Positions 5,416 to 57,732 of a DNA stretch of 64,000 bases are shown here, one piece after another; position 1 is the stretch's first letter; each line of letters starts with the position of its first letter. The position numbers and the translations under genes were made by a program. The notes under the pieces are model-generated. The model was given only the letters and a program-made list of their open reading frames with translations. It was not told where the DNA came from and ran no database searches. The stretch comes from Candidatus Omnitrophota bacterium (lineage in GTDB: Bacteria; Omnitrophota; Gorgyraeia; Zapsychrales; Fredricksoniimonadaceae): the NCBI GenBank assembly GCA_015233675.1, contig JADFXH010000004.1, positions 72,492 through 136,491 on the forward strand. Reading direction: 5' to 3'.

Positions 5416-6083
5416 AGCTGGATCAATTTCATGATTTTATCAACTACTCCCTGCGCTGTTAAACTCGTGGAATCAATGAGTATGGCATCCGGAGCTCTTT
5501 TCAAAGGGCCGACCGACCGGGTTAGATCTTTTTGGTCACGCTCTTTCATATCAACGCGCAGTTGATCCAAATTAATGCCTTTGCCCGCCGCGGTCAACTC
5601 TTTATAACGGCGCTCTACGCGTTCTTCCAGATCAGCATCCAGATAAAATTTATAACGGGCATCTTTAAAAACCACCGTCCCTTGGTCGCGTCCATCCGTG
5701 ACTATGGAGCGGCTTGTACCGATGGCTCTTTGCCATCCCACCATCAATGTCCTCACTCCCGGCGTTCTGGCGGCATAATACGTATTATTAGTCACCTCCA
5801 GGGCGCGGATGGCAACAGATACATCTTCACCGTCTAAAGTAATATTCAAAGACCCCTCAGGCATCTCTTTAAAGTTGATTTTGGTATTGCGCGCAAGAAC
5901 AGTCAAGGCTTCTTCGTCGGATAAATCCATTTTTAAACGCAGGGCTTTTAATGTCAAAGCTCGGTACATGGCTCCGGTATCAAGATAGGATATCCCAAGC
6001 CTTATAGCTAAGGCCTTGGCTACCGTGCTTTTACCGGCACCCGCAGGGCCGTCTAAGGTAATGACTAAATGTTCAGCCGGCAT
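5412..6083 (-). CDS. cmk: Cytidylate kinase
   Basis: P-loop DGPAGAGKSTVAK followed by LDTGAMYRA, typical of Cmk. ATGA overlap with the lepA start. Confidence 0.9.
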   Translation of the reverse strand: MPAEHLVITLDGPAGAGKSTVAKALAIRLGISYLDTGAMYRALTLKALRLKMDLSDEEALTVLARNTKINFKEMPEGSLNITLDGEDVSVAIRALEVTNNTYYAARTPGVRTLMVGWQRAIGTSRSIVTDGRDQGTVVFKDARYKFYLDADLEERVERRYKELTAAGKGINLDQLRVDMKERDQKDLTRSVGPLKRAPDAILIDSTSLTAQGVVDKIMKLIQL

Positions 6084-6942
6084 GACTTTTATCCAATCGT
6101 TCGCGTTTGTCCTTGGATTGTTTAAGGATGTCCGTCAGCGCTTCTGCATCTCGGGCCACAATGGCTTTTCGTATCACAGCTAAAACTTTCACAGCTTCAT
6201 CCAAAGCTTTAAGAATTGGCTTATGATTGGATAACGCAATGTCCTTCCAGACCTGAGGATCAGAGGCCGCGATCCTGGTCGTATCTTTTAGACCTTGGGT
6301 GGCGTGATCCAGATAATTATCCGGCAGGGCTTTCATTATCGCAAATGCCATTAAATGCGGCACATGACTAATATATGCTAAAACCTGGTCATGCTCCTGG
6401 GGCGTCATAAACTTTACTGATGAGCCTAATTGCGTCCAGAACTGTTTAATTTTCTCCTTGGCCAAACGATTGGTTTTATCCGTGGGGGTCATCACGCATG
6501 ATCCCCCTTCATAAAGCTGAGCGTTAGCATAGAGAGCCCCTTTTTTCTCGGAACCAACCAATGGATGGGAACCTACAAACAAAAGAGAATGGTGCAATAC
6601 CTTTTCAGCCCTCTCGACAATAGCGGCCTTGGTGCTGCCTAAATCCGTAATGATGCACCCGCGCCTGTGTTCTTTCCCTAAAATTTCGATGATATCTAAA
6701 ATCGTATTCACCGGAGTGGCTAGCACAATTAAATCTGCGCCGATGATCCCTTTATTAAAATCTATCGTCCCTTCATCAATAGCCCCCAGCTTCTTAGCCT
6801 CATTTAAAGCAGTTTCCTGACGGCCGATACCAATCACCTCACGGGCCAGTCCTTTTTTCTTAATTGCCAATCCCAAGGAGGCTCCCATAAAACCAACACC
6901 AACGATCGCAACCCTTCTAAAAAGCTCTTTTCGATTAAACAT
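6073..6942 (-). CDS. tyrA: Prephenate/arogenate dehydrogenase
   Basis: N-terminal Rossmann motif VAIVGVGFMGASLG and the HP(L/M)xGSE block (SHPLVGSE). Lies inside an aromatic amino-acid gene cluster. Confidence 0.8.
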   Translation of the reverse strand: MFNRKELFRRVAIVGVGFMGASLGLAIKKKGLAREVIGIGRQETALNEAKKLGAIDEGTIDFNKGIIGADLIVLATPVNTILDIIEILGKEHRRGCIITDLGSTKAAIVERAEKVLHHSLLFVGSHPLVGSEKKGALYANAQLYEGGSCVMTPTDKTNRLAKEKIKQFWTQLGSSVKFMTPQEHDQVLAYISHVPHLMAFAIMKALPDNYLDHATQGLKDTTRIAASDPQVWKDIALSNHKPILKALDEAVKVLAVIRKAIVARDAEALTDILKQSKDKRERLDKSHAG

Positions 6943-6951
6943 AGATCCCCT

Positions 6952-7968
6952 TTAAAAATCCCTGTCAACCGCTTGAGCCACGCGTTTGCAAGAGACCATT
7001 AATTCCTGAAATTTATCCGGCATCAGTGACTGAGCCCCGTCAGACAAAGCTTCTTCGGGGTTATCATGAACCTCAACCATTAAAGCGTCACAGCCGGCGG
7101 CAATACCGGCACGGGCCCCTGCGGCCACATACTCCCAAGAACCCGTCCCATGGCTTGGATCCACTACCACCGGCAAATGACTCAGACGTTTGGCAACAGC
7201 TACAGCATTGATGTCGAGCGTATTGCGTGTAGCAGTTTCAAAAGTACGAATACCGCGCTCGCAAAGCATAACATCAAAATTGCCGTTGGCTAAAAGATAC
7301 TCGGCAGACATCAGCCACTCTTTGACGGTCCCGCTCATGCCGCGCTTGAGCATCACGGGTTTTTTAATCATCCCGACTTCCTTCAATAAAGCAAAATTCT
7401 GCATATTGCGCGCCCCGATTTGTAAAATATCGACGTATTTGGCCAAAAGCTCAACCTGGCGGGTATCCATGACTTCAGAAATCGTACATATGCCCACTTC
7501 TTTCCCCACCGCCTGCAGGATCTTCAAACCTTCCTCACCCAAACCTTGAAAATCATACGGAGAGGTGCGCGGCTTAAAAGCTCCCCCACGCAAAATATTG
7601 CCCCCCAAGGCCTTGACCATTTTGGCAATGGAAAGCATCCCTTCAAAATTCTCGACCGAGCAGGGTCCTGCCATCACCGCAATCTTGCTTGCGCCAACAG
7701 TTGTATTATAGGGAAGCTTAATGACAGTATTTTCTTTCTTGAATTCGCGGGAAACTAATCTATACGGAGCTAAAACCTGAAGGACCTGATCAACACCGGG
7801 GAAAACTTCCAGAGGAATGACACGCAAGGCATCTTCAGGGCCGATAAAACCGATCACCGTACGCTCCACCCCACGCGAAATATTGGCCTTAAGCCCCAGC
7901 TTACCCGCGCGTTCGACAATATGTTGAATATTAGCCTCTGTAGCATCAGGGCGTAAAATAACGATCAT
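6952..7968 (-). CDS. aroF: 3-deoxy-7-phosphoheptulonate (DAHP) synthase, type I-beta, with an N-terminal ferredoxin-like regulatory domain
   Basis: KdsA/AroA(Q)-type barrel blocks GPCSVE, KPRTSPY, QIGARN, KRG and DPSH. The ATG at 7968 forms an ATGA overlap with the hisC stop; the 28 codons upstream in the tracked ORF are probably not translated. Confidence 0.85.
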   Translation of the reverse strand: MIVILRPDATEANIQHIVERAGKLGLKANISRGVERTVIGFIGPEDALRVIPLEVFPGVDQVLQVLAPYRLVSREFKKENTVIKLPYNTTVGASKIAVMAGPCSVENFEGMLSIAKMVKALGGNILRGGAFKPRTSPYDFQGLGEEGLKILQAVGKEVGICTISEVMDTRQVELLAKYVDILQIGARNMQNFALLKEVGMIKKPVMLKRGMSGTVKEWLMSAEYLLANGNFDVMLCERGIRTFETATRNTLDINAVAVAKRLSHLPVVVDPSHGTGSWEYVAAGARAGIAAGCDALMVEVHDNPEEALSDGAQSLMPDKFQELMVSCKRVAQAVDRDF

Positions 7969-9047
7969 AGTATTTCTCCCAAAGTTTTTATAAAACGCTT
8001 GTTTTCCGGCGCGCTTCCGATGGAAACACGTATGTATCCTTTTAAACCCCACACGGCCATGTCACGGACAATGACTCCTTTTTTAAGCAGGGCGCCTGCC
8101 GCCTGGCTGCTATCGCCCCTCACATGGATCAATATGAAATTCGTGGAACTTTCTTCATAGGAAATATCCATGCCTTTAAGAGAACGGTAAAGATACTGCT
8201 TTTGTTCGTGCACATCTTTAACAATATTACGGTAATACGCTTCGTCGCCTAAAACCGCCACGGCCGCGGCCTGGGCCATGCTGTTGACATTAAAAGGCTC
8301 ACGTAAACGATTTAGGATATCAATAATTTCCCGGCTGGCTATCCCGTAACCGATGCGCAGCCCTGCTAACCCGTAAATTTTTGAGAATGTACGGGTTGTC
8401 ATCACATTGGAATATTTTTTCATCAAGGCTAAAGTATCAGGATAATCTTTTGCCTGAACGTATTCAAAATAAGCCTCGTCAAAAAATACTAAAGCGCTTT
8501 TGGGAACACAACGCATGAAATCCTCAACCTGACGAGCCGTGATATATGTCCCGGCCGGATTATCAGGGTTACCGATAAATATTATCTTAGTACGCGCATT
8601 GATCTTGGCTTTCATCGCTTGAAGATCATAACGAAAATTCTTCAATGGCACCTGGCGCAAACGGGCGCCGGACAAAGTTGACGCTATCTCATAAATCAAA
8701 AACGAGGGCTTGGCGATAATGACCTCATCTTGTTTGGTGACAAAAGCTTTTACCGCTAAAACAATAATCTCGTCTGAGCCGTTCCCGAGGATCAACTGGT
8801 CCTCATCGATGTTAAGCTTCTTGGCCAAGATACGGCGCAGCAAGAAACATCCGCCATCGGGGTAACGGTTAACTTCCAAAGCCGCTTTAGCCATGGCTGT
8901 CAACACCTTAGGCGAAGGCGGATACGGATTCTCATTAGAGGCCAATTTTACGACAGTTTTTAAACCAAGCTCGCGCTTAACCTCGTCAATGGGCTTGCCC
9001 GGAACATAAGGTTTAATCTTGAAAATATATGGATTTGCTGCCCGCAT
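7965..9047 (-). CDS. hisC: Histidinol-phosphate / aromatic aminotransferase (class II)
   Basis: 360 aa. Blocks LASNENP, NPDNPAG and the PLP-lysine block TFSKIYGLAGLRIGY. Confidence 0.85.
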   Translation of the reverse strand: MRAANPYIFKIKPYVPGKPIDEVKRELGLKTVVKLASNENPYPPSPKVLTAMAKAALEVNRYPDGGCFLLRRILAKKLNIDEDQLILGNGSDEIIVLAVKAFVTKQDEVIIAKPSFLIYEIASTLSGARLRQVPLKNFRYDLQAMKAKINARTKIIFIGNPDNPAGTYITARQVEDFMRCVPKSALVFFDEAYFEYVQAKDYPDTLALMKKYSNVMTTRTFSKIYGLAGLRIGYGIASREIIDILNRLREPFNVNSMAQAAAVAVLGDEAYYRNIVKDVHEQKQYLYRSLKGMDISYEESSTNFILIHVRGDSSQAAGALLKKGVIVRDMAVWGLKGYIRVSIGSAPENKRFIKTLGEIL

Positions 9048-9102
9048 AAGTTTTTCTCTTTATTTTAATTAGCTTGCACCCTATTGGGGATTAAGACAGA
9101 GC

Positions 9103-9131
9103 ATTATAAAGGCGGGTGGGGAGAATGTCAA
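9103..9131 (-). promoter_or_regulatory. Consensus sigma-70 type promoter upstream of hisC
   Basis: Minus strand reads TTGACA (9131-9126), an exact 17-nt spacer, then TATAAT (9108-9103), about 55 nt upstream of the hisC ATG. Confidence 0.65.
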
Positions 9132-9200
9132 TCGCAGAGCGAAAATGGACAATTTATGGAAGATTAAGCTGTTAAAATAATAAACACTACTGATAATATT

Positions 9201-10175
9201 CTAGTAGCTGGTGGCAAGTTCTTCTTTTAACTGATAAAGCAATCCTGCGGCAATTTCGGGTTTAGCTAAAAAATACTTTCTAGCTTTAATAGTTATTTTT
9301 GACCTGTTCCATCCTTGTTTTTGGACCTCAATGGAAATATCGCAATTGTAGACTTTTGCAAAAATCTGACCTGCCGAATCATTTGTTCTTTTGATCTGCC
9401 CTAACCGTTTGACCAGCTGTAAACTGTGCTGATAAACTTGCGCGCTGGAATACAGCATATCAGAGACCGCATCATCGCGGGCCACAGCAATCCCTATCGC
9501 TAGCCCCGGCAAAAACCCTACCCCCAACAAGGCGGTAGCAGCATATAATCCGGCACCTTGTAAGGCGGTTGGCTTTAACGCCTCAAACATCAATAACCCC
9601 ACGAGTTTAGGGACGCCATTAATATTACGGATAGTTTTATCTTTAAGATTCAAATCGTAAGCTTCGATCACAGGCGGCGTTTTGCTGTCATCCTCAACAA
9701 CGACCTGTTCTATATTGAGTTTAAGTTCGTCAATGATAAAATTAGGCAAAGGCCCCTTGGTCTTTTCATGAAGCTTTTCCTGAACAATTTTAAGCTCATT
9801 TACATTCAACTTGCCCTGCGGATTTTTAAAAACAATCATTTTATTTAAACGAAAAATCACTAAAGGAAAATGCAGTTTCCCTTTCAGGGCCTCAAAAAGG
9901 TCAGCATCAACAAGTATTTCAGAAGCATTAAAAAATACTTTTGGCGGGAACCCTTGCTCATTATAAACCTGAAGATCGGTGATACGTATTTTATGGGTAA
10001 AAATATTTAAAGAAAAATTGCCAAAGGTAACCTTAGCTCCGATCGCCTTTGCTGCAACAGACTCGATAACCGGCTTAAGAAAAGCCTGTTGGGCAAACCA
10101 GATTACAATAATCGTGATAAGCCCCACCCAAAGCCATCGGTTCAAACGCGAAAAAAAATTGAAAGTAGTATTCAT
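9201..10175 (-). CDS. Hypothetical membrane-anchored protein (AsmA-like N-terminus?)
   Basis: 324 aa with one N-terminal TM helix (WLWVGLITIIVIWF), a second hydrophobic segment near residue 200, and a beta-rich remainder. No SD, and the start abuts the upstream terminator. Confidence 0.5.
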   Translation of the reverse strand: MNTTFNFFSRLNRWLWVGLITIIVIWFAQQAFLKPVIESVAAKAIGAKVTFGNFSLNIFTHKIRITDLQVYNEQGFPPKVFFNASEILVDADLFEALKGKLHFPLVIFRLNKMIVFKNPQGKLNVNELKIVQEKLHEKTKGPLPNFIIDELKLNIEQVVVEDDSKTPPVIEAYDLNLKDKTIRNINGVPKLVGLLMFEALKPTALQGAGLYAATALLGVGFLPGLAIGIAVARDDAVSDMLYSSAQVYQHSLQLVKRLGQIKRTNDSAGQIFAKVYNCDISIEVQKQGWNRSKITIKARKYFLAKPEIAAGLLYQLKEELATSY

Positions 10176-10182
10176 GAATAAT

Positions 10183-10229
10183 TTAAATAAAAACCCCCAC
10201 TGTTGTCTTACGACAACAAAACGTGGGGG
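10183..10229 (-). terminator. Rho-independent terminator after the DUF3332-like gene
   Basis: Minus strand: CCCCCACGTTTTGTTGTC-GTAA-GACAACAGTGGGGG followed by TTTTTATTTAAATT. Located 33 nt past the stop at 10262. Confidence 0.8.
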
Positions 10230-18626: not shown

Positions 18627-18664
18627 TGCAATGCCCTCCGAATTAATTAGTACAATTTAAAAAA

Positions 18665-19031
18665 GCAGTCAATAAGCCGAGTTCTGTGACCCTTGGCAGG
18701 GCGATGGCCATTCGACTAACATCCGCCTTTGGCGGATATCTTGCAGCCTACCCGAGAGTATGACGGAGCGGATCACCCCGTGTCATGGGTCCCACCTTTC
18801 GATGGAACTTGCGACTCCCCTCCTATTTGGCATTGCTCCATGCAGAGATTGCTCGTTTCACTCTCCCGTGAGGGAGCATCGTCACTGTAGCTCTGATCCT
18901 CGTCTGCCGGGCCAAAATGCTTTCGCGTTTGGCTTCGCAAGACTGTCCCGCGTTATCGGGATGCATCATCCTTTGGAGCTCGGACTTTCCTCTCCGACGC
19001 CATAAGCATCAGAGCGGCCATCCTGACCTGC
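18665..19031 (-). ncRNA. rnpB: RNase P RNA, bacterial type A
   Basis: The minus strand contains GAGGAAAGTCCGAGCTCC (P4 5' strand), GGGTAGGCTGC and ACAGAACTCGGCTTAT (P4 3' strand). The 5' GCAGGTCAGG and 3' TTGACTGC can form P1. About 367 nt; ends estimated from P1 pairing. Confidence 0.85.
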
Positions 19032-19421
19032 TTTTTTTAAAACCTGTCGAACCAGCGCATCAGCCTCTTTATTTTGTTCACGAGGCACATGCGTAATTTG
19101 AAACGACTTAAACCCTGTGACCAAATGCTTAACCTGAACAAAAAGAGGCTTTATATTCTCATGCCTGACGGCATACATGCCGCAAACTTGCCTGCACATC
19201 AATTCGCTGTCAGTTTTAATGCTGACTTCATCCGCTTTTAAAATCAACGCTTCCTGTAATGCAACAATCAACCCTGTATATTCCGCGATATTATTGGTCC
19301 CTTGGCCGATGGACATGGCCATGGTTTTGACGGTTTTCGCCCCGTTTTTAATAACCACTCCGATGGCCGCAGGTCCCGGATTCCCCAAACAGCCGCCGTC
19401 GGTAAAAATCTCCAATTTCAT
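18966..19421 (-). CDS. rnhA: Ribonuclease HI-type protein (RNase H fold); its last ~22 codons run into rnpB
   Basis: Blocks FTDGGCLGNPGPAA, NNIAEYTGLI, SIKTDSEL and NKEADAL place the DEDD residues. The C-terminal tail AGQDGRSDAYGVGEESPSSKG is encoded by the 5' part of rnpB. Confidence 0.8.
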   Translation of the reverse strand: MKLEIFTDGGCLGNPGPAAIGVVIKNGAKTVKTMAMSIGQGTNNIAEYTGLIVALQEALILKADEVSIKTDSELMCRQVCGMYAVRHENIKPLFVQVKHLVTGFKSFQITHVPREQNKEADALVRQVLKKAGQDGRSDAYGVGEESPSSKG

Positions 19422-20218: not shown

Positions 20219-20295
20219 TGGTGGACTCAGAAGGATTTGAACCTTCGACCTTCGCCATGTGAGGGCGACGCTCTAACCAACTGAGCCATGAGTCC
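20219..20295 (-). tRNA. tRNA-Val (anticodon CAC), CCA encoded
   Basis: Manual cloverleaf: acceptor GGACTCA/TGAGTCC, D arm GCTC-AGTTGGTTA-GAGC, anticodon stem TCGCC/GGCGA with loop CTCACAT, T arm GAAGG-TTCAAAT-CCTTC, 3' ACCA. Confidence 0.9.
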
Positions 20296-20305: not shown

Positions 20306-20379
20306 TGGGCCCACCTGGACTCGAACCAGGGACCAAGAGATTATGAGTCTCCTGCTCTAACCGACTGAGCTATAGGCCC
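20306..20379 (-). tRNA. tRNA with CAU anticodon, probably tRNA-Ile2 (lysidine) rather than Met; CCA not encoded
   Basis: Cloverleaf: acceptor GGGCCTA/TGGGCCC, anticodon stem GGAGA/TCTCT, loop CTCATAA, T arm CCTGG-TTCGAGT-CCAGG. It lacks the 3 G:C initiator signature. It has C4:G69 and C5:G68 and an anticodon arm close to E. coli ileX (from memory). Confidence 0.85.
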
Positions 20380-20502: not shown

Positions 20503-23500
20503 TTAACTGGCCGCAGGAACTCTTTCTTGAACATTTAACCCAAGGAACTGCCTAAGATCCATCATCGGCTGGATATTGATGATTACCGGCACAAAGCCGG
20601 GGGCATTTTGCAGCTGCCGGAGCATGGCGGGGTCAAGGTGGAATTTGATTTCACCGCCGTTATTTTGTGTCTGCAAATTCATATTAGCCGCGGTCAAATC
20701 AATACCTCCTTTTTCAATCTTTAACATTGCCGAATCTTTTTTTGGTGTGATCGTTCCAGATAACTTAGACAAAATAAAAAATGAGGCCCATTTCATCATT
20801 TGCGAAAACTCATCATCATGTGTCCATCCGTTAAACCCCTCATCTTGCCGGGTCACAATTTTTTCTACTTTACTGCCGGACTGTTTTGCGATCTGCAATA
20901 GATGTCCAAGTTCATGAACGATAGTTTCAACCTTTTGAGAAAAGCCGCCTGCTGATGAAACTCCTTCCGCCAATGATTGATTAAGTAAAAAACGATTGTC
21001 CGAGAATAATCCCCTAAATGGAGCGTCACTTTTAGCCAACAAAACATCATCAATTCCAAAAATCTTCCCAAATTCTAATCCTATTTGTAAAAGCTGTTTC
21101 TCTGAATCCGTTTCAGGCGAAATAATCCAATCGTCAATCGGTGTAATATCAATGATTTTTAATGTTTCAGCCATGACCTCCCGTTGAATGGCGTGCTCAT
21201 CGGACATACTGTTTGCGTTCTCCATAGATCGACCGGTCGCAGCTGCCAAAGCGCTCGCAAGCCTCGGGGATACCTGCATCAATGTCTTTATTCTGCGTAA
21301 AACCAGGCTCCCCCTTTCCTTTACCCCTTTCTCATTATTAAAATCAACTTCCAGCAAAGCTAAAAACTGTTTTATCGAATTCTTTTGCAGTCCTGAAACC
21401 TCACCGTCAAACCAAGCCCGTAACGTCTCCAGTTCTTTGTTACTAACACTGGCAACCTGCGGTTGATCAAGTTCATTGTTAATACCATTAACAATATCAA
21501 ACATATGACGGCCATCTACAAAAAGAGGGTTACGGTTTTTATTAAATGCGGCATTGTAGGAAGACTTGCTTTCGAAATCTGATGATATAATCCTGTCTAT
21601 CGTAAAACTTTCATCTGAAAGATGTTTACTCATCATCGCGCGGTATATGCCCAACGCTATATACTTTTGGATAAAAGGCAAATATTCCTCTTCCTGTGCA
21701 AAACCGTTACGGCTTTCATATAGCGCCAATGGGATCTGGATGGCAATCCCCATTTTATCAACAATGCGCCGTATCCTCTGCGGAACCAGTGCTAAAAATT
21801 TCTCTTTTAAAGCAATATCTTCAACCCGTAATCCTTTTTTATCAATGATCTGGGAAGGTATTTCAGGATCATGATGTTCCCATATCCGAAAAACACCATG
21901 CTCAATCAAAACATCGTGAGCGGCATCCGGAGAAGATAAATTGGGAGCATAAAAAGCCCCTTGAAAAAGGACATCTTTGCCGGTAACCCTGACCGGCCTG
22001 ACCTGATTGTTGATCTCAAGTTCAAGTTCATCCTGATCCGTTACTGCAAATCCAGCGTTAATTTTCCAGGCTGACTCAGCGAACATTTGCTCAAGCTCAG
22101 GGATAATCGTACTTGCCTTCTTATTCCTGCGGATCATGAATCCGGTCTGTTCTTCGGCATTTCTATCCCGCCAGCCCAATTTTATCAACTTGGGCCTGCC
22201 TTGTGTGCGGTCAACCTCAACAACAAAAGAATAGACCCTTCGCTCTCCTCGAGAGACAATCTCTACGCTATCAACTCCGGCATATTGAGTAAACTTGCCT
22301 GTCCCAAAAAAACCTGCCAGCATACCCATCAGGCCTTTTTGGCCTGTATTTAAATCGTACTTATTTGATTTTCTGATCAAAAGAGCTAACTCCTGCCCAT
22401 TCGGAGCGCCGGAGCCATTGTCTTGGGCTTCTTCTACAAATTCCTTTTCTACCGGGTCAAAATAAAACTTAACCCGCATATTCCCTTTTCGTTTTGGATT
22501 TTTCTGCCTCGCTAAAACCATGGCATCCAAATAATTCTGTGCAAGTTCAGCCGCATAACCGCCTGATTCCCGCAAACCTTCTATTTTTGACCTTATATTC
22601 TGACGAATTCTCTCAACAGCCTCTCCATTCAAACTTGCTATACGGTCATGCTCTAAGGAGATGTCTTCAACCGACCGAACGCCGTTTTCAGCAGAGGAAT
22701 TCCATACATCCAGCTGGTCCAGCCAGATGCCCTCCCCGATGTTTTGCCATTCAATCTCCTGATCTTCCGTCTTAACATCCTCAGCCACCAAATCTGTCTT
22801 AGTAGTCAAAAATACCAGCAAACTGCCAAGTCTACCCAAACTCTGAAAATCATCTTTTGCAACCGCCTTTTCAATAACTTTCCAAGCTGTACCTTTAAAC
22901 GTGTCGAAAATCAATTCTAAATAATGCTCAGATGCCTCGCTGTTCATAATTCTGTTTACCTGATTGATCAAATTGTTTTTTGCAGAAACCTCTTTATTCC
23001 TTAACGTCAATTGAATTGAGCAAACAATTTTTGACAACAGAGGGTAGTCCTTCATATTTTTGGACTTAAACGATTCAATAAGCTGATAGACCGCTTTTGC
23101 TGATTCAATTGACGCAGGGCTGTCTAAAGACCAGCCGTAAGCCATTATTTTGATAATATCATTGATATCTTCCCTCGTATTGATTCCATCAACAACGGCC
23201 GCCTGTAAAAGTGTTTTAAAGAAACGATGGTAAAAATCCTCCCTCTCATGAGACTGCAAGGAAAGAATATTTTCTTCAAAAAATTCAGGCCAAAAATCTT
23301 TCAACCCTTTGTCAATTTCATGAAGCGTCTTGGCTACATCATCGACTAAAGCATCAATGGAGGAGAGCTGACTTTCAGCTGAAGTTTTACCTTCAATCAC
23401 CTGTTCCATCCTTTGCCTTAGCAGGCCATAAAAGAAATTAAATGAATCCTCATAATCTGACCGGTTTATTTGAAGAGTATCTTCGGGAACAAACTTGATA

Positions 23501-26500
23501 AGCTCTTCATATGCCGTTGAGAGCTTTTGACGCCACTCGTTTGATTTTTCAGAACTTACATTTAATCTTATCTGGAATTCTTTTGTTTGAGGTTTCAAAA
23601 AATTCCATATTTTAGCTGTGGTATCACGGCTTGCCGTTAAAATTCGGCCGTCAGTCAGAATTTGAACTGATTCAATATCAGATGAATGCCCTACAAGGGT
23701 CGCATCAACCTGCCACTCTCTTGGGCTTGTCTCCCTCCATATTTTCGATGAACCATCAGAACTTGTCGTTAAAATCCGGCCATCGGAGAGAACTTTGGCT
23801 GCACGCCCTTCAAGCGTTGCTTCTATCTGCCATTTTCCGTTTATCTCACTTACTATCCTGACTTGGATGCCATTTTTATCTTCCATCAAAATTCGGCCAT
23901 CAGGCAGTATTTGACCTGAATACCCATCAATAATCGCTTCTACCTGCCATTCTCCCGGGCTTAACTGCCTCGAAATCATCACTTCGCTGCCATCATAACT
24001 TGCTGTCAGAATCCGGCCATCAGGAAGCATCTGAGTTGGCTGTCTAAAACCTAAACGGCCTTCAAGTTTCGCCATAGCCTCCCATTTCCCCGGGATCACC
24101 TCACTCCATATTTTCACTTGGCCGCCATCAGAATTTGCCGTCAGAATGCGGCCATCGGGCTGCATTTGGGCTTTAATCCCTTCTAGGACCGCATCTATTT
24201 CCGCATCTATTTTCCATGCCCGATCCATTTTTATCCATATCATCATTTTGCCCTGAAAACTTGTCAAAATTCGGCCATCAGACAACGCTTGGGCTGAAAC
24301 CCCGTCAAGGGTCGATTCTACCTGCCACTCTCCCGGGTTTGCCTCATGCAATATTTTCGTTTTGCCAAGAAGATCCGACATCATAATTCGGCCATCGGGC
24401 AATATTTGGGCGCCATTCCCTTCAATGCGCGCTTCCAACTGCCATTCTCCTGTTTTCTCTTCTCTCCATATTCTAGTTTTGCCATCAAGACTTGATGTCA
24501 TAATCCGGCCATTAGAGAACATTTGGGCTGACTCTACCCAAACCGGACATTTAAGGGTGGCCTCCACTTTGGGTTTTGGCTCGCCCAAATTAGTCTCATT
24601 TCGTAATAAACCCAAATTAAAACTAAGCTCTCTTAACCCGTTAGCTTCCTGAAGTACAAGCGCGTCCCTTTTGATAACACCATCCTCGACACCAAAAGGC
24701 ATAGCCAGAGACCAGAATTTCTCAATCTCACGGCCATTGACTCTCAATAAAACATAACGTGTTTTCTTTCCGGTATACCTATAAAGTATATTGGTGTTGT
24801 CTCGGGCCACGAGGGTACATCTCTTTTCTTTTTCAAAATCAGCCAGTGTATAACTTCTTATATGCTCTTCAAAAGCTATCTTTTTTGGTAAGGCACTCAT
24901 GGCTGAATCCCAAATTTTAGCAGGTTCTGTTGAAGAAGAAATCCTTCCTTCCCCTCCTAATGAGTCTAAATAATCTCCTAAATCCTTAGGTAAAGTATTA
25001 TTTAATTCCAATTTCCCTAACTTACGAAATTTATATGCAACATCCTCAGCAACTATTGGCACATCTTTGAGAATATACTCCTTAACATTAATATCCTTAT
25101 AGAAATTGCCTAATTTGGCCCTCTCTCCATCGAAATTATACTTCGGATTCATCTCTTGCGGCCCGTAAGGTTTTGTCGTTACATAACTCTTTTCATCATT
25201 CCATTCCAGGAAATCCTCCTCTGCCTTCCAATTCGTTTTCACCTTTTCTTTATCTGAAGGTTCTTCTTTAACACCAAAAGCTGCATACGCTGCGGCCTCC
25301 AATTTTACTAAATCATAACTATTGGCAGTATCCTCTTCCGCAATGATCTTTATAAGCTCCAACTTCTCTTCTTTTTTCTTGTCATCTTCAGAAAGCGTAA
25401 CGATTAAATCCCCAATCTGAGACGGGACTATTACATAGCCGTCTCCCCGTACTACCGGCAAAGGTTGTGTTTTAATTATGCGCATAATATCCTCAAAATT
25501 CCGAGCCTGATATTGCTGCCAGACTTGCGGCCTAAAGGGGACTGTCAAAATCAAATTCCTTATTTTATTGCCGGAATCTTTGTCTGTTGCTTCAAGGACC
25601 ATCGGTAACACCGAAGCCCCCAAATATTCTTTTAGTTGTTTAATTTCAGCCCCTCTCCAATCAAACAAACCCTCATTTAAGAAAACAACACTTTGCCCTT
25701 GCGGCATTTGGAAATTATCAAAACCATCTCGCAATGGCAAAATAATCGCCCCTTCCTTTCGAAGATTGCTGATGAAAGATGTCATCTCTGTTTTTACAGC
25801 ATTTTTAACTTCATTAATAATATCTGTTACTGCTTTGTTCCCGGGAGCTATCCCTTCAAGCCCGCCAATCAAAGTATTGATAATTTTAACTTTTTCTTCA
25901 TTTGAATAATCATTGTGAAGTACGAGTCTAACAAGGCTCAAAACACCCTTCTTTAAGGGCTCTTCATCCTGATTTCTCTGCAAAACGATCTTGTCCCAGG
26001 AAGGAGAAACTCTAATCAGCCTTCCCAAATCAACCATCAGCTCTCCCGCCAGAATTGACGTCTTTATTACCGGATGCAAAGTAACACGTGACATGACCCT
26101 TCCATTTCTGGCAAAAATTATCGATGGCCCCATCCCTTGGGGGTCATGCACAAGGCTTGTTTTTTGTGTTTCAGCATCAATCTCCTCGGGGGTTGTCATG
26201 ACTTTGTTTTCCTTATCTCCCCCATCGACAGGTAAAAGCATCCGCGACATAATCTGTAAATCCATTCCCTTCCCAGGATCGATAACTCTAAGAATCCTTG
26301 GCTCTAAAGACACCACAATCACCGGTTCATTCTGTCTGCTTTTAGGCTCCGGAGCATTTTCATGTTTAAGATTGGCAAGACCTGCTAAAACTTTCTTATG
26401 TTCCCAGCCATTCACAAGCCTAAATTCAGAAAAGCCAAATCGAGTCCAAATTCTGGGACCTTTAACAGGAGAAAACGCATCATGAATTTCCTGCTCCAAT

Positions 26501-28410
26501 CTTTTTAAAGTTACTCCCTCTCCGTCTTGCGGGATATCCTTGCTTTTAAACACAGCGATGACCGTGCCTTGCTGTGAAAAAAGGCCTCCTGTCGCCTTTT
26601 GGAATTCTTCTTTGGTGGATTGAAATATGGCCGCCTTAAAGCCGCCTTCCTGACGGATAATGACAAGACAATACGGAGGCTTTCCCTTTTGCCTCGAAAA
26701 AACCTCTATTCTTTCTTCTGGGTTCTCCAGCCACGCAAGAATCTGTTTAACGCCCATGCCAAATTGGCCCATTTCTCCTCCGAGAGCATCAATACTGTTG
26801 GCCACCGCTTCAAGGATCGATTCAATCTTTGAGCTCCCGCTTTGATAACCAACGGTCCTGTCTAAAGCCACGTCCGGCTGGGCATCTCCTTTTATTTTTT
26901 TAATGATCTGTTCAGAATATCCAACCTGAGCTAAATGATCATAAACCCGCGTGTAATATTCATCTAAATTTTGGGTCCCCAAGCGCTCGCCTGCCTTAAG
27001 AATTCCCAGAGAAGATAAAAGCTCCTCCAGTTCAACTCTCGATAAACTCTTCAATCGTTTTTGCGCCTGTAAAAATGGAACCAAATTGAAATAGATGACA
27101 TTTTGCGGCACAGGGACCGATTCAAAGGAAACTTTAGGAGATTGGTGATTACGATTGGTATCTTGCGCTTGCTTCCCAAAACCTTTAATGGTACTGATAA
27201 TTTCTAAAGCCCGATTCTTTAAATTTGACATATCCAGCAACATGGCACGGTCCGCCACCGTCTGTATTCTCAAATAAGACGACATAGAAAAATCGAGATT
27301 CATCCCCCCGGAAAAATATTTTCGCGGAATAGTTTCCCGGGATAAAGTGTCAGTGTCTTCTTTAATATAATTGAACACGCCTCTTTTGAAGGCTTGAAGG
27401 TAACGCAGGTAAATTGTTTCGACATTGAGTGGGAAGGAATTTTCGTACCCAACTCCTGCCACTTTATTTTTATCTGCATACACCTGGGCCAGGATACTGT
27501 CCTTGATTTTCTTTTTGTACCAAGTAGCCAAAATCAATGAATTGTAAACTTGACGGAGTTTAGCAAAATTTTTGTCTTCGTTGACTTCCTTGGTCAATTC
27601 AGGGAGGACTATTTCCCGGACAATTTGAGCGCCTAAAGCGTTGATATCCTTGTTGATTGGCAAACGGTTTGTTCCCTGGGATGCTTTCAATTGCAACCCT
27701 CCATTGGTTGGCATTTGGTGCTTCTCAAGCGAAAGATAATCCTGCTCAAGCATGACTTTTAACTTCGATTCAACCACGTATGCCGTCCCTGCCTTGGCAT
27801 TCTCATAAACAACAGCCTTGTCAGGAATGATCCAAACTTTATTAAATGTGTTGACCGAAATATTGGTATTGCCGTACTTCTTGGCCGCCTGCTCATACAC
27901 CCGCCTCCAAAATCTTTTACCTACTTTATCTTCCGGATAAATTAAACTGGCTGTTATCTGCTTGAGCATATAATCTTCTGCTAAGAGATCTCTACCCATT
28001 TCCGTTAAGCCAAAACTATTAGGGATAATCCTGTCTTTCTCATAAGGAGAAAGGTTAACCCATAAATCTTTTTCCGGAATGGTAAGGCTGGCTAAAAAAT
28101 ATTTGATTAATCGGGTGGCTTCGGTTCGTAATTCTTGGTCGTCGTTGGGTTTGTTCTTCTGGGTTGCTTTCTCATTCAATGGTTCATTGGTTGGCGTATC
28201 CCCTCTGTCCAAAATAAAATCAAAACGGAAAGGGTTGTCGGTATGAAATTTAATGCCTTTTAAAATAGGAGGATCAAGCGGCGGACTTAAATGGACCATT
28301 ACCCCGGGCGCAGGCAGACGATATTCCTGGGCCTGAGCCATAGGCAGCGGCCCAAATGTATTTAACAAAAAAGCTGTCAAAATAGCTATATGAAGACATG
28401 GGGCTCTCAT
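20503..28410 (-). CDS. Giant (about 2,635-aa) signal-peptide-bearing mosaic protein: conserved N-module, degenerate GHKL-like module, WD40-like 8-blade array, canonical GHKL/Hsp90-like ATPase motifs, HExxH motif, conserved C-module
   Basis: Uninterrupted 7.9-kb ORF. The tracked start at 28425 is GTG; the ATG at 28410 gives MRAPCLHIAILTAFLLNTFGPLPMAQA|QE, a textbook Sec signal. Neither start has an SD. Motifs are located in the findings. Confidence 0.85.
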   Translation of the reverse strand: MRAPCLHIAILTAFLLNTFGPLPMAQAQEYRLPAPGVMVHLSPPLDPPILKGIKFHTDNPFRFDFILDRGDTPTNEPLNEKATQKNKPNDDQELRTEATRLIKYFLASLTIPEKDLWVNLSPYEKDRIIPNSFGLTEMGRDLLAEDYMLKQITASLIYPEDKVGKRFWRRVYEQAAKKYGNTNISVNTFNKVWIIPDKAVVYENAKAGTAYVVESKLKVMLEQDYLSLEKHQMPTNGGLQLKASQGTNRLPINKDINALGAQIVREIVLPELTKEVNEDKNFAKLRQVYNSLILATWYKKKIKDSILAQVYADKNKVAGVGYENSFPLNVETIYLRYLQAFKRGVFNYIKEDTDTLSRETIPRKYFSGGMNLDFSMSSYLRIQTVADRAMLLDMSNLKNRALEIISTIKGFGKQAQDTNRNHQSPKVSFESVPVPQNVIYFNLVPFLQAQKRLKSLSRVELEELLSSLGILKAGERLGTQNLDEYYTRVYDHLAQVGYSEQIIKKIKGDAQPDVALDRTVGYQSGSSKIESILEAVANSIDALGGEMGQFGMGVKQILAWLENPEERIEVFSRQKGKPPYCLVIIRQEGGFKAAIFQSTKEEFQKATGGLFSQQGTVIAVFKSKDIPQDGEGVTLKRLEQEIHDAFSPVKGPRIWTRFGFSEFRLVNGWEHKKVLAGLANLKHENAPEPKSRQNEPVIVVSLEPRILRVIDPGKGMDLQIMSRMLLPVDGGDKENKVMTTPEEIDAETQKTSLVHDPQGMGPSIIFARNGRVMSRVTLHPVIKTSILAGELMVDLGRLIRVSPSWDKIVLQRNQDEEPLKKGVLSLVRLVLHNDYSNEEKVKIINTLIGGLEGIAPGNKAVTDIINEVKNAVKTEMTSFISNLRKEGAIILPLRDGFDNFQMPQGQSVVFLNEGLFDWRGAEIKQLKEYLGASVLPMVLEATDKDSGNKIRNLILTVPFRPQVWQQYQARNFEDIMRIIKTQPLPVVRGDGYVIVPSQIGDLIVTLSEDDKKKEEKLELIKIIAEEDTANSYDLVKLEAAAYAAFGVKEEPSDKEKVKTNWKAEEDFLEWNDEKSYVTTKPYGPQEMNPKYNFDGERAKLGNFYKDINVKEYILKDVPIVAEDVAYKFRKLGKLELNNTLPKDLGDYLDSLGGEGRISSSTEPAKIWDSAMSALPKKIAFEEHIRSYTLADFEKEKRCTLVARDNTNILYRYTGKKTRYVLLRVNGREIEKFWSLAMPFGVEDGVIKRDALVLQEANGLRELSFNLGLLRNETNLGEPKPKVEATLKCPVWVESAQMFSNGRIMTSSLDGKTRIWREEKTGEWQLEARIEGNGAQILPDGRIMMSDLLGKTKILHEANPGEWQVESTLDGVSAQALSDGRILTSFQGKMMIWIKMDRAWKIDAEIDAVLEGIKAQMQPDGRILTANSDGGQVKIWSEVIPGKWEAMAKLEGRLGFRQPTQMLPDGRILTASYDGSEVMISRQLSPGEWQVEAIIDGYSGQILPDGRILMEDKNGIQVRIVSEINGKWQIEATLEGRAAKVLSDGRILTTSSDGSSKIWRETSPREWQVDATLVGHSSDIESVQILTDGRILTASRDTTAKIWNFLKPQTKEFQIRLNVSSEKSNEWRQKLSTAYEELIKFVPEDTLQINRSDYEDSFNFFYGLLRQRMEQVIEGKTSAESQLSSIDALVDDVAKTLHEIDKGLKDFWPEFFEENILSLQSHEREDFYHRFFKTLLQAAVVDGINTREDINDIIKIMAYGWSLDSPASIESAKAVYQLIESFKSKNMKDYPLLSKIVCSIQLTLRNKEVSAKNNLINQVNRIMNSEASEHYLELIFDTFKGTAWKVIEKAVAKDDFQSLGRLGSLLVFLTTKTDLVAEDVKTEDQEIEWQNIGEGIWLDQLDVWNSSAENGVRSVEDISLEHDRIASLNGEAVERIRQNIRSKIEGLRESGGYAAELAQNYLDAMVLARQKNPKRKGNMRVKFYFDPVEKEFVEEAQDNGSGAPNGQELALLIRKSNKYDLNTGQKGLMGMLAGFFGTGKFTQYAGVDSVEIVSRGERRVYSFVVEVDRTQGRPKLIKLGWRDRNAEEQTGFMIRRNKKASTIIPELEQMFAESAWKINAGFAVTDQDELELEINNQVRPVRVTGKDVLFQGAFYAPNLSSPDAAHDVLIEHGVFRIWEHHDPEIPSQIIDKKGLRVEDIALKEKFLALVPQRIRRIVDKMGIAIQIPLALYESRNGFAQEEEYLPFIQKYIALGIYRAMMSKHLSDESFTIDRIISSDFESKSSYNAAFNKNRNPLFVDGRHMFDIVNGINNELDQPQVASVSNKELETLRAWFDGEVSGLQKNSIKQFLALLEVDFNNEKGVKERGSLVLRRIKTLMQVSPRLASALAAATGRSMENANSMSDEHAIQREVMAETLKIIDITPIDDWIISPETDSEKQLLQIGLEFGKIFGIDDVLLAKSDAPFRGLFSDNRFLLNQSLAEGVSSAGGFSQKVETIVHELGHLLQIAKQSGSKVEKIVTRQDEGFNGWTHDDEFSQMMKWASFFILSKLSGTITPKKDSAMLKIEKGGIDLTAANMNLQTQNNGGEIKFHLDPAMLRQLQNAPGFVPVIINIQPMMDLRQFLGLNVQERVPAAS
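23599..24537 (-). repeat. Intragenic array of eight ~39-aa WD40-like units inside the giant ORF
   Basis: Eight protein-level repeats of (Q)xLxDGRILTxSxDGxxKIWxxxxPGEWQxEAxLxG. The DNA core AT(T/C)CGGCCATC recurs every 115-130 nt. Confidence 0.8.
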
Positions 28411-28543
28411 ATTACAAGTATGCACTATATATAATCTAAAAACAATGGGGACAGAGCGTTTTTGAGAAAGCGCTTCCTGAGATATTTCCGTCGATACGAA
28501 AAAATAAAGGTGATGGAATAATTTTTAATTGCCGGACTTGTCC

Positions 28544-28954
28544 TTAAGAGGAAATATCTCTGGGTAGGTTTGAATATTGATCTAAATCGCCATTGCCGTT
28601 GTCTTTATCCTTCTGCTTATCCATTTGGTTTTGCATGCCTCTCCAAAGGCTTAATTGGTCCGGCTTGAGATATTGAGACAATTCCTGGGTTTCTGCTGCT
28701 TGCAATCCCTGCCTTTGACTGTCAATGGAGCTCTGGTTAATGGATCCATCCTCGATACTTTTTTGGAGATCATAAAACGCCACCGTGTATTTTTCAATGA
28801 TCGGAGTAATATTAGTTACCTGGTCATCCTGTAAATCCAAATCCGTCTTCATTTTTACAATGATATCATTAGAGCTTAGCTGAGCCTGGGCAAAAACAGG
28901 CGTTGCCGCAATGGTCAAGACTATCAGAAATCCATAAATCGCTTTTGTTCTCAT
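28544..28954 (-). CDS. Small secreted LTxxQ-like (Spy/CpxP-superfamily-like) protein, paralog of 39625..40017
   Basis: The ATG at 28954 has AAGGAG 10 nt upstream. Signal peptide ...PVFAQA. Aligns with the 130-aa protein at 39625 through VFAQ, DI, L.L..DQV, PIIEKY, SI.SQ, E.QELSQ.L..DQL..W and MQ. Confidence 0.7.
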   Translation of the reverse strand: MRTKAIYGFLIVLTIAATPVFAQAQLSSNDIIVKMKTDLDLQDDQVTNITPIIEKYTVAFYDLQKSIEDGSINQSSIDSQRQGLQAAETQELSQYLKPDQLSLWRGMQNQMDKQKDKDNGNGDLDQYSNLPRDISS

Positions 28955-29013
28955 ATTGTATTTTCTCCTTACCTCTAAGCTCATTTATACTAATACGCAC
29001 ACCCTACCGGGCG

Positions 29014-29081: not shown

Positions 29082-29249
29082 TTAACGGCCGCCATCTTTA
29101 TGCTTTGAAAAACAGTCCTTGCAATAAACCGGACGGTCTTCCCTAGGTTTAAACGGAACTTCACACTCTTTTTTACAATCTGCGCAAACAGCTTTGTGCA
29201 TTTCCCGCGGGCCTCTGTCATACCCGCCTCTACCACCTTGAAAACCCAT
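29082..29249 (-). CDS. CxxC-x17-CxxC zinc-ribbon mini-protein with a Gly/Arg-rich N-terminus
   Basis: MGFQGGRGGYDRGPREMHKAVCADCKKECEVPFKPREDRPVYCKDCFSKHKDGGR. The ATG at 29249 is preceded by GAGAGGA. The 101-aa ORF overlapping it in another frame of the same strand is judged spurious. Confidence 0.7.
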   Translation of the reverse strand: MGFQGGRGGYDRGPREMHKAVCADCKKECEVPFKPREDRPVYCKDCFSKHKDGGR

Positions 29250-29359
29250 GTGCTTATCCTCTCTTGTTGATGACCTGATTCGCAAAACACCTCATTGCTA
29301 CTTTAAATTATCATCTTAAAACTGCTATCTGTCCAATGCTTTCTTTCGAATGAGAAATT

Positions 29360-52703: not shown

Positions 52704-53144
52704 CTAACAACCCGTACCATTAGTTACACAAACATTTCCGGCTCCTATTGTAACAACTCCGGTACTGGAAATAGTAAACGAAGACAAATTAGCAGCTGTT
52801 CCAACGGATGCGAAAGCATAATACGCACCATTCGTAAGCTCATCGTACTCTGTGGTGGAGTTGACGGCGAACGGGTCATAAAGAGGGGTGATCACAGCTG
52901 CCGGCGTTGTGCTATCAAAATAAGTAGCACAAGGAGAAGTCGAGCTAGGGATATACACATGCGGGGTGGCTGCGTTATTGTAATAGGACTCCATCGCGGC
53001 CTGCAGTGTTTGTAGCTCTCCCTTGACCTTCACAATTTTGCCCGAGTCCTGCATGCCCTTCATACGAGGTATAGCAATTCCAATAAGGATGATCAGCACT
53101 GAGATAACTATCACCAACTCAATAATCGTGAACCCTTTTTTCAT
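52704..53144 (-). CDS. Prepilin/pseudopilin paralog 2
   Basis: The ATG at 53144 gives the same 146-aa length. About 90% identical to paralog 1 at protein level by eye, with an identical MKKGFTIIELVIVISVLIILI N-terminus. Confidence 0.88.
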   Translation of the reverse strand: MKKGFTIIELVIVISVLIILIGIAIPRMKGMQDSGKIVKVKGELQTLQAAMESYYNNAATPHVYIPSSTSPCATYFDSTTPAAVITPLYDPFAVNSTTEYDELTNGAYYAFASVGTAANLSSFTISSTGVVTIGAGNVCVTNGTGC

Positions 53145-53198
53145 TTTTTTCTCCTTTGTTTTTCTTACAATCGGGACATTATTTAATTTCAAGTCTTC

Positions 53199-53651
53199 TT
53201 ACATATTAAAAGAATGAGTGACCGGCCTTGCTGGCTTCAAAGACAAAACTATTTCAGTCCCTCTCGCGTCAACAAGAACAACGCTGTCATCCTTAATTTC
53301 CCGGACAGTTGACCCTGCTATCTTATCTCCTATACCGACTACGGCCCCATTGATTATAACGCTGGGCCTGCTGCTGCCCAAAAAAATCCCCTGCAAAACT
53401 AAAAAAGGCCTCCTTACAGCCGCCTTTACTGTGTTTACGTTATTAAGGCCCCTTGTATCAAAAGGATTTCTTTGGTTCCATTGCTTGTTTATAAAATGCA
53501 GGCTTACATCACTATCAGCTATAAGGCCTTTTAGCTCATCTTGTTCGTTAATCATTCCTCCGGAAGAATCGGCATGACCCGTTAGACTTCTGGCTACTAA
53601 AAAGAATGCCCCTAAAGTGCAAACAATGATCTGTTTATTGATTTTCATCAT
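53199..53651 (-). CDS. Secreted PilP/GspC-like small protein
   Basis: Signal peptide. The C-terminal block LVLQGIFLGSSRPSVIINGAVVGIGDKIAGSTVREIKDDSVVLVD resembles the beta-domain shared by PilP and the GspC HR domain. Assignment rests on pattern and position only. Confidence 0.45.
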   Translation of the reverse strand: MMKINKQIIVCTLGAFFLVARSLTGHADSSGGMINEQDELKGLIADSDVSLHFINKQWNQRNPFDTRGLNNVNTVKAAVRRPFLVLQGIFLGSSRPSVIINGAVVGIGDKIAGSTVREIKDDSVVLVDARGTEIVLSLKPARPVTHSFNM

Positions 53652-53652
53652 C

Positions 53653-55825: not shown

Positions 55826-56012
55826 CCCGATCAATTGAAGTTAAAGTCGTAGCAGCTGATATTATCGTTGATAAAACTTGGGAACCCTTAAATTAATAAT
55901 CGCGCCTTATAATAGTTCCATGCATGCCCGGAATGAAGGCCGCCCAGAAATCCAGCGCTTCAAAAATAAGGAAATCCCCGTTATGCTCTCAAAATCAAGC
56001 TTATGCTCGCTA

Positions 56013-56453: not shown

Positions 56454-56484
56454 TTTATTCTCCTTTTTATTTGTTTTTAAAAAA

Positions 56485-57723: not shown

Positions 57724-57732
57724 TTAAATTAA

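Follow-up and report, generated by a model that had tools for sequence, protein, structure and literature searches.

A standing question about Omnitrophota is how they deploy the large unannotated proteins that they encode in such number. These bacteria are widespread, uncultivated and ultra-small, and are thought to be predators or parasites. In a stretch of 64,000 nt from a Candidatus Omnitrophota contig (JADFXH010000004.1, positions 72,492 to 136,491; hereafter, the window), one minus-strand gene encodes a very large protein that closes with a short conserved segment (hereafter, the tail), which an earlier note made from the DNA letters had put forward as a possible sorting or anchoring signal. 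What is this tail, and what might it do for the protein that carries it? It is the constant C-terminal piece shared by a large protein family, apparently restricted to Omnitrophota, that offers a concrete handle on the question of deployment. Its sequence defines a new family, with the behaviour of a sorting or docking module at the C-terminus, but, unlike the known modules of this kind, it is bound to a fixed N-terminal domain.

Two constant ends enclose a variable middle

From N to C terminus, the window gene encodes a signal peptide, a conserved N-terminal domain (hereafter, N-domain), a variable region (hereafter, cargo) and the tail (Table 1). ATG 28410 was taken as the likely start because homologues begin MR(T/A)PC.HIAILTAFL. 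The translation terminates in ...KKDSAMLKIEKGGIDLTAANMNLQTQNNGGEIKFHLDPAMLRQLQNAPGFVPVIINIQPMMDLRQFLGLNVQERVPAAS and a stop codon, and the C-terminal peptide quoted in the earlier note is present, exactly as given, at the end of the minus-strand open reading frame (ORF) 20503-28425. The interval assigned to it there (20503-20733) covers the stop codon and the last 76 residues, but the module begins one codon earlier, with the DSAM at 20736.

When the window protein was compared by BLAST with other tail-bearing proteins, they shared aa 1 to ~400 and ~2560 to 2640, and the ~2,150 residues between were unmatched. We defined the family by the occurrence, in a single protein, of a signal peptide, LPxPG...NPFRFDF...KYFSGG and a C-terminal GGIDL...FHxDPAML...GFxPVIIxIxP...L..FLG. 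All three are found in the window protein, whose N-domain is 68-69% identical to the best N-domain matches and whose tail is up to 86% identical to tail matches. A six-frame motif scan found no second copy of the tail in the window.

The tail is widespread and conserved as a peptide

Used as a single query, the 76-aa tail retrieved 111 proteins, down to E = 1e-27, none of which had a Pfam annotation. In an alignment of 112 tail sequences (A1), G-F-x-P-x-I-I was invariant and I, F, L, LQNA, V, V, I, P and FL were conserved at ≥90%. An exhaustive HMMER search of 1.84 billion representative proteins with the A1 profile gave 3,524 matches at E ≤ 1e-3, 1,623 at E ≤ 1e-10 and 134 at E ≤ 1e-30, in proteins of 72-2,646 aa. 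The tail is far from unique to the window protein, with 3,524 clusters and several to at least 10 copies per genome. The expectation that it would close many unrelated large proteins holds for their number but not for their being unrelated, as nearly all have the same ~340-aa N-domain. In 244 proteins, the distance from the end of the tail match to the C-terminus had a median of 3 residues and never exceeded 24. GFxPVI stood 9-45 residues ahead of the stop (82 ORFs at 78 genome loci), and the final 5-20 residues were variable.

One genome per GTDB species was scanned with a single exact pattern, A[PS]GFVPVII. The scan yielded 104 confirmed loci, spread over 27 assemblies, the richest of which had 10. 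Most of these assemblies are labelled Candidatus Omnitrophota; other labels, which are unconfirmed, include 'uncultured Planctomycetales' (seven third-party co-assembly metagenome-assembled genomes), 'Alphaproteobacteria' (n = 1) and 'bacterium' (n = 1). A search of IMG/VR viral contigs found no relatives of the tail, and a phage origin of the family was rejected on this ground.

A divergent subfamily of the tail was represented by GGIDF..M.MNV..VQFDPAMI..GFDGVNFEVESIIP..LLLGL (locus L050, 15579-19802), and another divergent tail by GGIDLNAANLNLQIKRDG..IDGLIPVIIDIKP (protein P0356). Both belong to members whose N-domains are divergent as well; the family thus extends beyond what the exact GFVPVII pattern of the scan captures. 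The loop of the tail between LQTQN and GIKFH tolerates insertions of 10-25 residues: in P0089, P0109, P0222 and P0099 it holds in-frame peptides (..SRFRGNDRE.., ..AGIHNK..) that are typical of a small repeated DNA element and also occur in the mini-ORFs described below.

Tails were 72.7% identical within a genome and 70.0% between genomes. At identical residues the third codon positions agreed in 52.6% of cases within genomes and in 49.1% between genomes, and third-position identity exceeded 90% in none of the tail pairs. Given that synonymous sites are unconserved, we conclude that purifying selection has acted on the peptide across old paralogues, rather than gene conversion or selection on a DNA site. 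The near equality of tail similarity within and between genomes fits what would be expected if all members were to match one near-invariant partner surface.

The tail is coupled to a signal peptide and a fixed N-domain

The pairing of the tail with an N-terminal module, stated in the earlier note, was borne out by BLAST and by hidden Markov models (HMMs) built in this work. The N-domain (~340 aa, LPAPGVMVHLSP...NPFRFDF...KYFSGG) had 1,357 homologues, none with a recorded Pfam family on the domain. By the HMMs, it was in the same ORF for 57 of the 87 tail ORFs at the genome loci; in four more it lay directly upstream with a stop or frameshift between, and most others were cut by contig ends. 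N-domains were apparently missing from 25 of 64 long representative tail proteins. Six N-less cases were inspected (five long proteins and the short P0391), and all were rejected as assembly artefacts: frameshifted N-domain pieces lie upstream of P0116; P0130, P0194, P0118 and P0148 start ≤184 nt from a contig end; and P0391 is in an assembly with many split genes. Real exceptions to the pairing are rare. Since the tail almost never occurs without the same N-domain, it is not a portable tag but one end of a fixed frame.

Ahead of the N-domain, a hydrophobic 12-mer (Kyte-Doolittle hydropathy >1.6) preceded LPxPG in 157 of 160 family N-termini, and in the AlphaFold2 (AF2) model of homologue P0274 the signal-peptide region is a helix (residues 5-24). 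The pairwise identities of N-domains and tails were correlated (r = 0.56; 0.54 without cargo-homologous pairs), which fits either co-evolution or simple co-inheritance.

A few loci depart from the usual layout. At L015, a complete gene of the family (4787-8131) is followed, in frame after its stop, by a 684-aa 'cargo + tail' ORF (8135-10186). This ORF, which has its own tail and neither signal peptide nor N-domain, may represent an orphan cargo module or a remnant of read-through or duplication. An N-less 523-aa tail ORF at L040 is preceded by an integrase fragment, and L077 encodes a 500-aa N-domain protein without a tail. In two mini-ORFs (P0089 and P0233), all that remains is the signal peptide, a stretch of ~45-70 aa from the start of the N-module, and the tail.

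The cargo is hypervariable and mostly of cytoplasmic type

In 85 full-length members, the cargo was 7-2,631 aa long (median 917) and homologous in 16 of 3,570 pairs (99.5% unrelated), five of the 16 being duplicates of the same protein. Mean identity among these members was 74% for the N-domains and 55% for the tail segments. Pfam domains in the cargo of 36 members included an SNF2 helicase with Helicase_C, several methyltransferases, Peptidase_M48, a GT1 glycosyltransferase, ABC1 kinase, phospholipase D, DnaJ, PP2C, the C-terminal domain of the RNA polymerase alpha subunit and a phosphoribosyltransferase, to which precomputed annotations add HAD, HD, HEAT repeats and protein kinase. Searches of the whole window protein with Pfam, NCBIfam and PADLOC gave WD40 in the cargo and nothing else. 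In the DNA, five to six diverged direct repeats with a spacing of ~117-135 nt (23619-24533) encode WD40-like blades ('DGRILT..DG..KIW').

The cargo is mostly of enzyme types expected in the cytoplasm, which is unusual on Sec-exported proteins, and it recalls the content of giant Omnitrophota proteins (bioRxiv 10.1101/2023.11.21.568195; 10.64898/2026.06.07.730766). The two end modules are unmentioned in the Omnitrophota literature searched, including these two reports and PMC10066038. With thousands of members, both constant ends under strong purifying selection and an almost unlimited cargo, the family can be used in a practical way: profiles of the tail and N-domain can list the putative exported or delivered proteins of a cell.

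A short motif recurs at the module boundaries

The motif [DN]-x-A-M occurred 175 times in 52 tail-bearing proteins, compared with 11.2 ± 3.6 in shuffled sequences (about 15-fold enriched), and its density was 2.77 per 1,000 aa in tail-bearing proteins versus 0.19 in neighbouring genes. Among 95 members, 76 had a copy ≤40 aa after KYFSGG at the end of the N-domain (chance about 0.6%), 51 had one ≤25 aa before the GGIDL of the tail start (chance about 0.4%; spacing 3-15 aa), and 54 had one inside the tail as DPAM. A further 130 occurrences were inside the cargo of these members, versus 15.2 ± 3.8 in shuffles (8.5-fold); these internal copies have hydrophilic, linker-like surroundings and are sometimes in tandem, 10-12 aa apart. 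The window protein has four sites (aa 392, 1173, 2564 and 2598; Table 1). In our reading, the motif delimits modules. One possibility is that it is a site of processing at which the cargo is released from the constant ends, much as the C-terminal domain (CTD) of the type IX secretion system (T9SS) is removed; another is that it is a recurring helix cap or binding motif.

The tail matches no known family and is not predicted to fold alone

The earlier note had named a match to an already defined sorting domain as a result that would refute its reading; Pfam, NCBIfam and a profile search of PDB sequences were all empty in this respect. The window tail and the N-terminal 200 aa matched no Pfam or NCBIfam family, nothing recurred when the 112 tails were searched against NCBIfam, and the tail profile had no match to PDB sequences at E ≤ 10. 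A family profile gave a sole PDB sequence match, to the low-complexity polyQ of huntingtin.

Modelled alone with the 112-sequence alignment, the tail reached a predicted local distance difference test (pLDDT) of 65 and a predicted template modelling score of 0.26 in AF2, with helices at DPAML..LQ and L..FL and the rest extended, and a Foldseek search of the PDB with this model returned nothing below E = 7. In the 600-aa member P0274, the modelled N-domain (pLDDT 80-90) is of alpha/beta type, has long helices and is without a fold match in the PDB (best Foldseek E = 0.5), and the tail was predicted at pLDDT 55-77 as a small hairpin and the same two helices. The longest hydrophobic run in the tail is 8 residues (FVPVIINI), and none is of transmembrane length. 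That the modelled tail does not fold alone suggests that it needs a partner; it looks like a composite linear motif that requires one, not like a beta-sandwich CTD. Duplication of the end of the N-domain was considered as a source of the tail and rejected, as the resemblance is at motif level only and profile scores were insignificant (E ≥ 10).

Comparison with known terminal modules

The T9SS CTD of Bacteroidota (Por_Secre_tail, TIGR04183) is likewise a C-terminal module of ~70-100 aa. It occurs tens of times per genome, on Sec-exported proteins whose cargo is unrelated, and is removed once the protein has been transported; the D-x-A-M upstream of the Omnitrophota tail could match its cleavage site. 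PMC11285876 describes the CTD as an autonomous immunoglobulin (Ig)-like beta-sandwich. It folds by itself, whereas the Omnitrophota tail is not predicted to do so; in addition, CTD proteins have no common N-terminal domain, and the phylum differs too. The seven-stranded Ig-like fold was not seen in the tail, for which AF2 gave no strands and two short helices, a weak negative because the model is of low confidence. No T9SS CTD model (TIGR04183 and the Pfam CTD families) matched the window tail at E ≤ 1 in Pfam or NCBIfam.

Dockerins (PF00404) of cellulosomal enzymes are also C-terminal modules of ~70 aa on signal-peptide-bearing enzymes with different catalytic parts, and they dock to a partner without which they are poorly structured. 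The Omnitrophota tail may consist, at motif level, of two related halves (GG.DL...D.AM) comparable to those of dockerin. However, it had no PF00404 match in Pfam, its consensus has no DxDxDG-type motif, it is without calcium-binding F-hand repeats, no cohesin-like partner was found, and dockerin enzymes have no common N-terminal domain.

The tags of the PEP-CTERM/exosortase, LPXTG/sortase and GlyGly-CTERM/rhombosortase systems resemble the tail as conserved C-terminal tags of multi-copy families with variable exported cargo. In these tags a short motif is followed by a transmembrane helix and a basic tail, whereas the Omnitrophota tail has hydrophobic runs of ≤8 aa, a variable polar end and no NCBIfam match. 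Giant adhesins of the type I secretion system (T1SS; LapA/MpIBP) share with the family two conserved ends and a long variable middle, but the Omnitrophota proteins have a Sec signal peptide, lack RTX repeats and a linked ABC transporter with membrane fusion protein (MFP), and have enzymatic cargo in place of repetitive adhesin domains.

Polymorphic toxins (CdiA, Rhs, MafB) and flagellins are laid out similarly, with constant regions and an extreme diversity of cargo. The toxins further resemble the family in having a short delimiting motif at the junction of constant and variable parts (compare VENN and PxxxxDPxGL) and in the orphan cargo module (compare L015). They differ in that the variable part of the Omnitrophota proteins is internal and not terminal, no immunity-like genes recur at the loci, and there is no DNA-level homology for cassette exchange. 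Flagellins have no signal peptides, and their ends are paired as coiled coils.

A possible role for the tail

The data exclude the known C-terminal tag families and a DNA-level role in recombination. The likeness to a sorting tag drawn in the earlier note stands as regards the terminal position, the Sec-type signal peptide, the hypervariable cargo and the upstream linker motif, and falls as regards portability; a sorting or anchoring role keeps these fitting properties, but no processing enzyme, receptor or recurrent neighbour was found around the loci.

Our preferred reading, with a probability of roughly 0.4, is that the tail is a recognition or docking handle that binds a partner after Sec export. 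The tail is predicted to consist of a short beta-hairpin, a DPAM-capped helix, the extended invariant hydrophobic strand GFVPVIINIQP and the short helix L..FLG. Once exported by Sec, each paralogue would offer this same handle to one common partner, which may be a receptor in the envelope, a machine for export or the N-domain, which is just as conserved. In this way the variable cargo would be targeted, tethered or assembled beyond the cytoplasm, and the D-x-A-M linkers are candidate points at which it could be separated from the constant ends. We favour binding after export because the tail is terminal, the proteins have a signal peptide, and selection acts at the peptide level on a hydrophobic strand that is predicted to be exposed and not to fold alone.

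Several points weigh against this reading. No receptor, peptidase or other recurrent neighbour was seen around 78 loci or beside the window gene, and the obligate pairing with the N-domain is unlike all known portable sorting tags. Cytoplasmic-type cargo, such as the SNF2 helicase, DnaJ and the RNA polymerase alpha C-terminal domain, is odd for surface display, unless it acts inside another cell. Export is deduced from a heuristic call of the signal peptide, and cleavage at D-x-A-M is conjecture, as the motif could be a helix N-cap. AF2 confidence for the tail was no higher beside the N-domain, which leaves docking within the same molecule unsupported.

The main rival, which we regard as somewhat doubtful, is that the N-domain and tail bind each other, either in the same molecule as a loop or in the next as head-to-tail chains or lattices. 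The tail strand would add to the N-domain, closing a loop like the packed termini of flagellin, or the lattices would display mixed cargo, and a third-party sorting machine would be unnecessary. Such binding gives the best account of the obligate pairing and co-divergence: the two modules are almost never apart, their identities are correlated to the extent given above, L050 and P0356 diverge at both ends, and a mutual fit among all paralogues would explain the conservation of both. It is also in line with the mini-ORFs, which keep the start of the N-module and the tail, and with the N-domain terminus SGG(M/I)(N/D)L, which resembles the tail start GGIDL. However, the AF2 confidence just mentioned for the 600-aa member was no better than for the tail alone, co-divergence is explicable as plain co-inheritance, the junction does not match the tail profile significantly (E ≥ 10), and the mini-ORFs hold repeat-derived insertions and may be decaying genes.

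A more far-reaching reading, which we consider unlikely, is that N-domain and tail together form a previously unknown protein-handling system specific to Omnitrophota, a universal 'carrier frame' in which the tail would serve as a new class of signal for sorting or docking, or as a strand for head-to-tail self-assembly, and the D-x-A-M linkers would be the sites of cargo release; the cargo would be displayed on the Omnitrophota cells or delivered from them into their hosts. That cargo would comprise hundreds of enzymes, for example, kinases, phosphatases, phospholipase D, helicases and methyltransferases. Should the tail prove to act in sorting or docking, it would join the T9SS CTD, sortase-type tags and dockerins as a class of its own, the first to be tied to a fixed N-terminal partner domain; if it is not, the family still merits a domain entry, as both ends are unannotated in current databases.

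It is improbable that the tail is an intramolecular or regulatory element unrelated to sorting (an autoinhibitory cap, folding aid or degradation tag), with the common function residing in the N-domain. The N-domain is the larger and better conserved of the two modules (74% versus 55%) and no machinery was found around the loci, both as such a role would have it, but the variable last 5-20 residues are unlike C-terminal degrons, and an invariant exposed hydrophobic strand without an autonomous fold points to intermolecular binding.

There is very little to recommend the idea that the conserved ends are DNA-level recombination handles that swap cargo cassettes among paralogues, as in the orphan modules of polymorphic toxins or in shufflons, with the peptide of little function. 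It draws on the hypervariable cargo between constant ends, the N-less 684-aa ORF in frame behind a complete gene at L015, and the tyrosine recombinases near 7 of 78 loci and the four around P0291. Synonymous positions of the tail are essentially randomised, and there has therefore been no recent gene conversion and there is no conserved DNA site, which largely refutes the idea. Moreover, the window had only about 80%, patchy DNA identity to any compared locus, and the frequency of integrases is, by estimate, near that expected by chance in 20-kb windows.

Least credible of all is a divergent form of a known secretion signal (a T1SS C-terminal signal with an N-terminal retention module as in LapA/RTX proteins, or a T9SS-type CTD), for although the two-ended layout resembles T1SS giant adhesins and OEP (TolC-like) genes lie upstream in the window, the proteins have the signal-peptide-like N-terminus that T1SS substrates lack and no RTX repeats, the TolC-like genes go with AcrB-type resistance-nodulation-division (RND) pumps rather than ABC/MFP operons, no sorting or CTD model of Pfam or NCBIfam matched the window tail (or, in NCBIfam, the 112 tails), and neither a beta-sandwich nor a fold match was predicted.

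Genomic context of the window gene

Table 1 Features of the gene and its surroundings in the window. Positions are those of the window; (r), read from the sequence. T2SS, type II secretion system; T4P, type IV pilus; TPR, tetratricopeptide repeat.
Feature	Position	Strand	Remark
Mechanical ORF	20503-28425	minus	2,640 codons, from GTG 28425
Whole 'bookend' gene	20503-28410	minus	2,635 aa counted from ATG 28410
Sec-type signal peptide, MRAPCLHIAILTAFLLNTFGPLPMAQAQ	28327-28410	minus	(r); probable AQA-Q cleavage site
Conserved N-domain, aa 34-374, EYRLPAPGVMVHLSP...NPFRFDF...KYFSGG	27304-28326	minus	BLAST against tail-bearing proteins
First D-x-A-M linker motif, DRAM, aa 392-395	27241-27252	minus	18 aa past the N-domain end
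Variable cargo, aa 396-2563	20737-27240	minus	BLAST; no counterpart in other tail-bearing proteins
GHKL-like N-box motif EAVANSIDA in cargo	26785-26811	minus	(r)
Internal DSAM in cargo, aa 1173-1176	24898-24909	minus	
WD40-type propeller repeats in cargo	about aa 1420-1616	minus	Pfam and PDB sequence search
GHKL-like N-box motif ELAQNYLDA in cargo	22522-22548	minus	(r); weak HSP90 match, E = 0.044
HELGH zinc-peptidase-like motif	20902-20916	minus	(r); ~55 aa before the tail
C-terminal tail module, aa 2564-2640	20506-20736	minus	DSAMLKIEKGGIDL...IKFHLDPAML..LQNAPGFVPVIINIQP..L..FLG
Tail sub-motif DSAM, aa 2564	20725-20736	minus	
Tail sub-motif GGIDL	20695-20709	minus	
Tail sub-motif MNLQTQ	20665-20682	minus	
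Tail sub-motif IKFHLDPAMLRQLQN	20605-20649	minus	
Tail sub-motif DPAM, aa 2598	20623-20634	minus	
Tail sub-motif GFVPVIINIQP	20566-20598	minus	
Tail sub-motif LRQFLG	20539-20556	minus	followed by a variable 11-aa end
Stop codon of the tail gene	20503-20505	minus	
tRNA-Met(CAT)	20306-20379	minus	124 nt downstream of the tail gene stop
tRNA-Val(CAC)	20219-20295	minus	downstream of the tail gene
Bacterial RNase P RNA, class A	18657-19035	minus	151.6 bits
146-aa ORF with its own signal peptide	28544-28984	minus	no Pfam match; in the 930-nt stretch upstream of the gene
67-aa treble-clef zinc-finger ORF (PF23477)	29082-29285	minus	in the 930-nt stretch upstream of the gene
T2SS/T4P-like cluster	52704-63691	minus	32 kb upstream of the tail gene; includes three small unannotated ORFs
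PilM	54155-55834	minus	
GspF/PilC	56485-57723	minus	
GspE/PilB ATPase with MshEN domain	57733-59352	minus	
Secretin	59751-61535	minus	
TPR protein of the T2SS/T4P-like cluster	61709-63691	minus	

The tail gene sits amid housekeeping genes. Two tRNA genes follow it directly; tRNA genes are common insertion points of islands, and there was no integrase near these two and the GC content was unremarkable. Also downstream are a CT398-like zinc-ribbon protein, an RNase H-like ORF, RNase P RNA, YebC and RuvCA. The RNase H-like ORF (18966-19421) shares its final ~70 nt, at the 3' end, with the RNase P RNA and may for this reason be shorter in reality. Upstream lie a TPR protein and two RND efflux sets.

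Pfam searches of most of the 51 window ORFs of ≥150 aa and of two shorter ones revealed no sortase, exosortase or rhombosortase, in agreement with the earlier note, though a T2SS/T4P-like cluster with a secretin lies 32 kb away; it is a possible outer-membrane route, and nothing in the data ties it to the tail gene. The window likewise showed no T9SS genes (PorU/PorV/SprA and others). Its gene for a lipid A acyltransferase points to a diderm envelope, and a signal peptidase I gene is present. All-versus-all clustering of 1,014 ORFs from 78 tail loci gave no candidate for a conserved neighbour, the top clusters being a repeat-derived spurious ORF, integrases and housekeeping genes; machinery for the tail, if it exists, would be encoded elsewhere in the genome.

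Integrase-like ORFs were observed at 7 of the 78 tail loci. On the contig of P0291 (L083, 3419-8369), four tyrosine recombinase genes flank this cargo-poor member; three of them follow one another in a trio arrangement, and the fourth is convergent.

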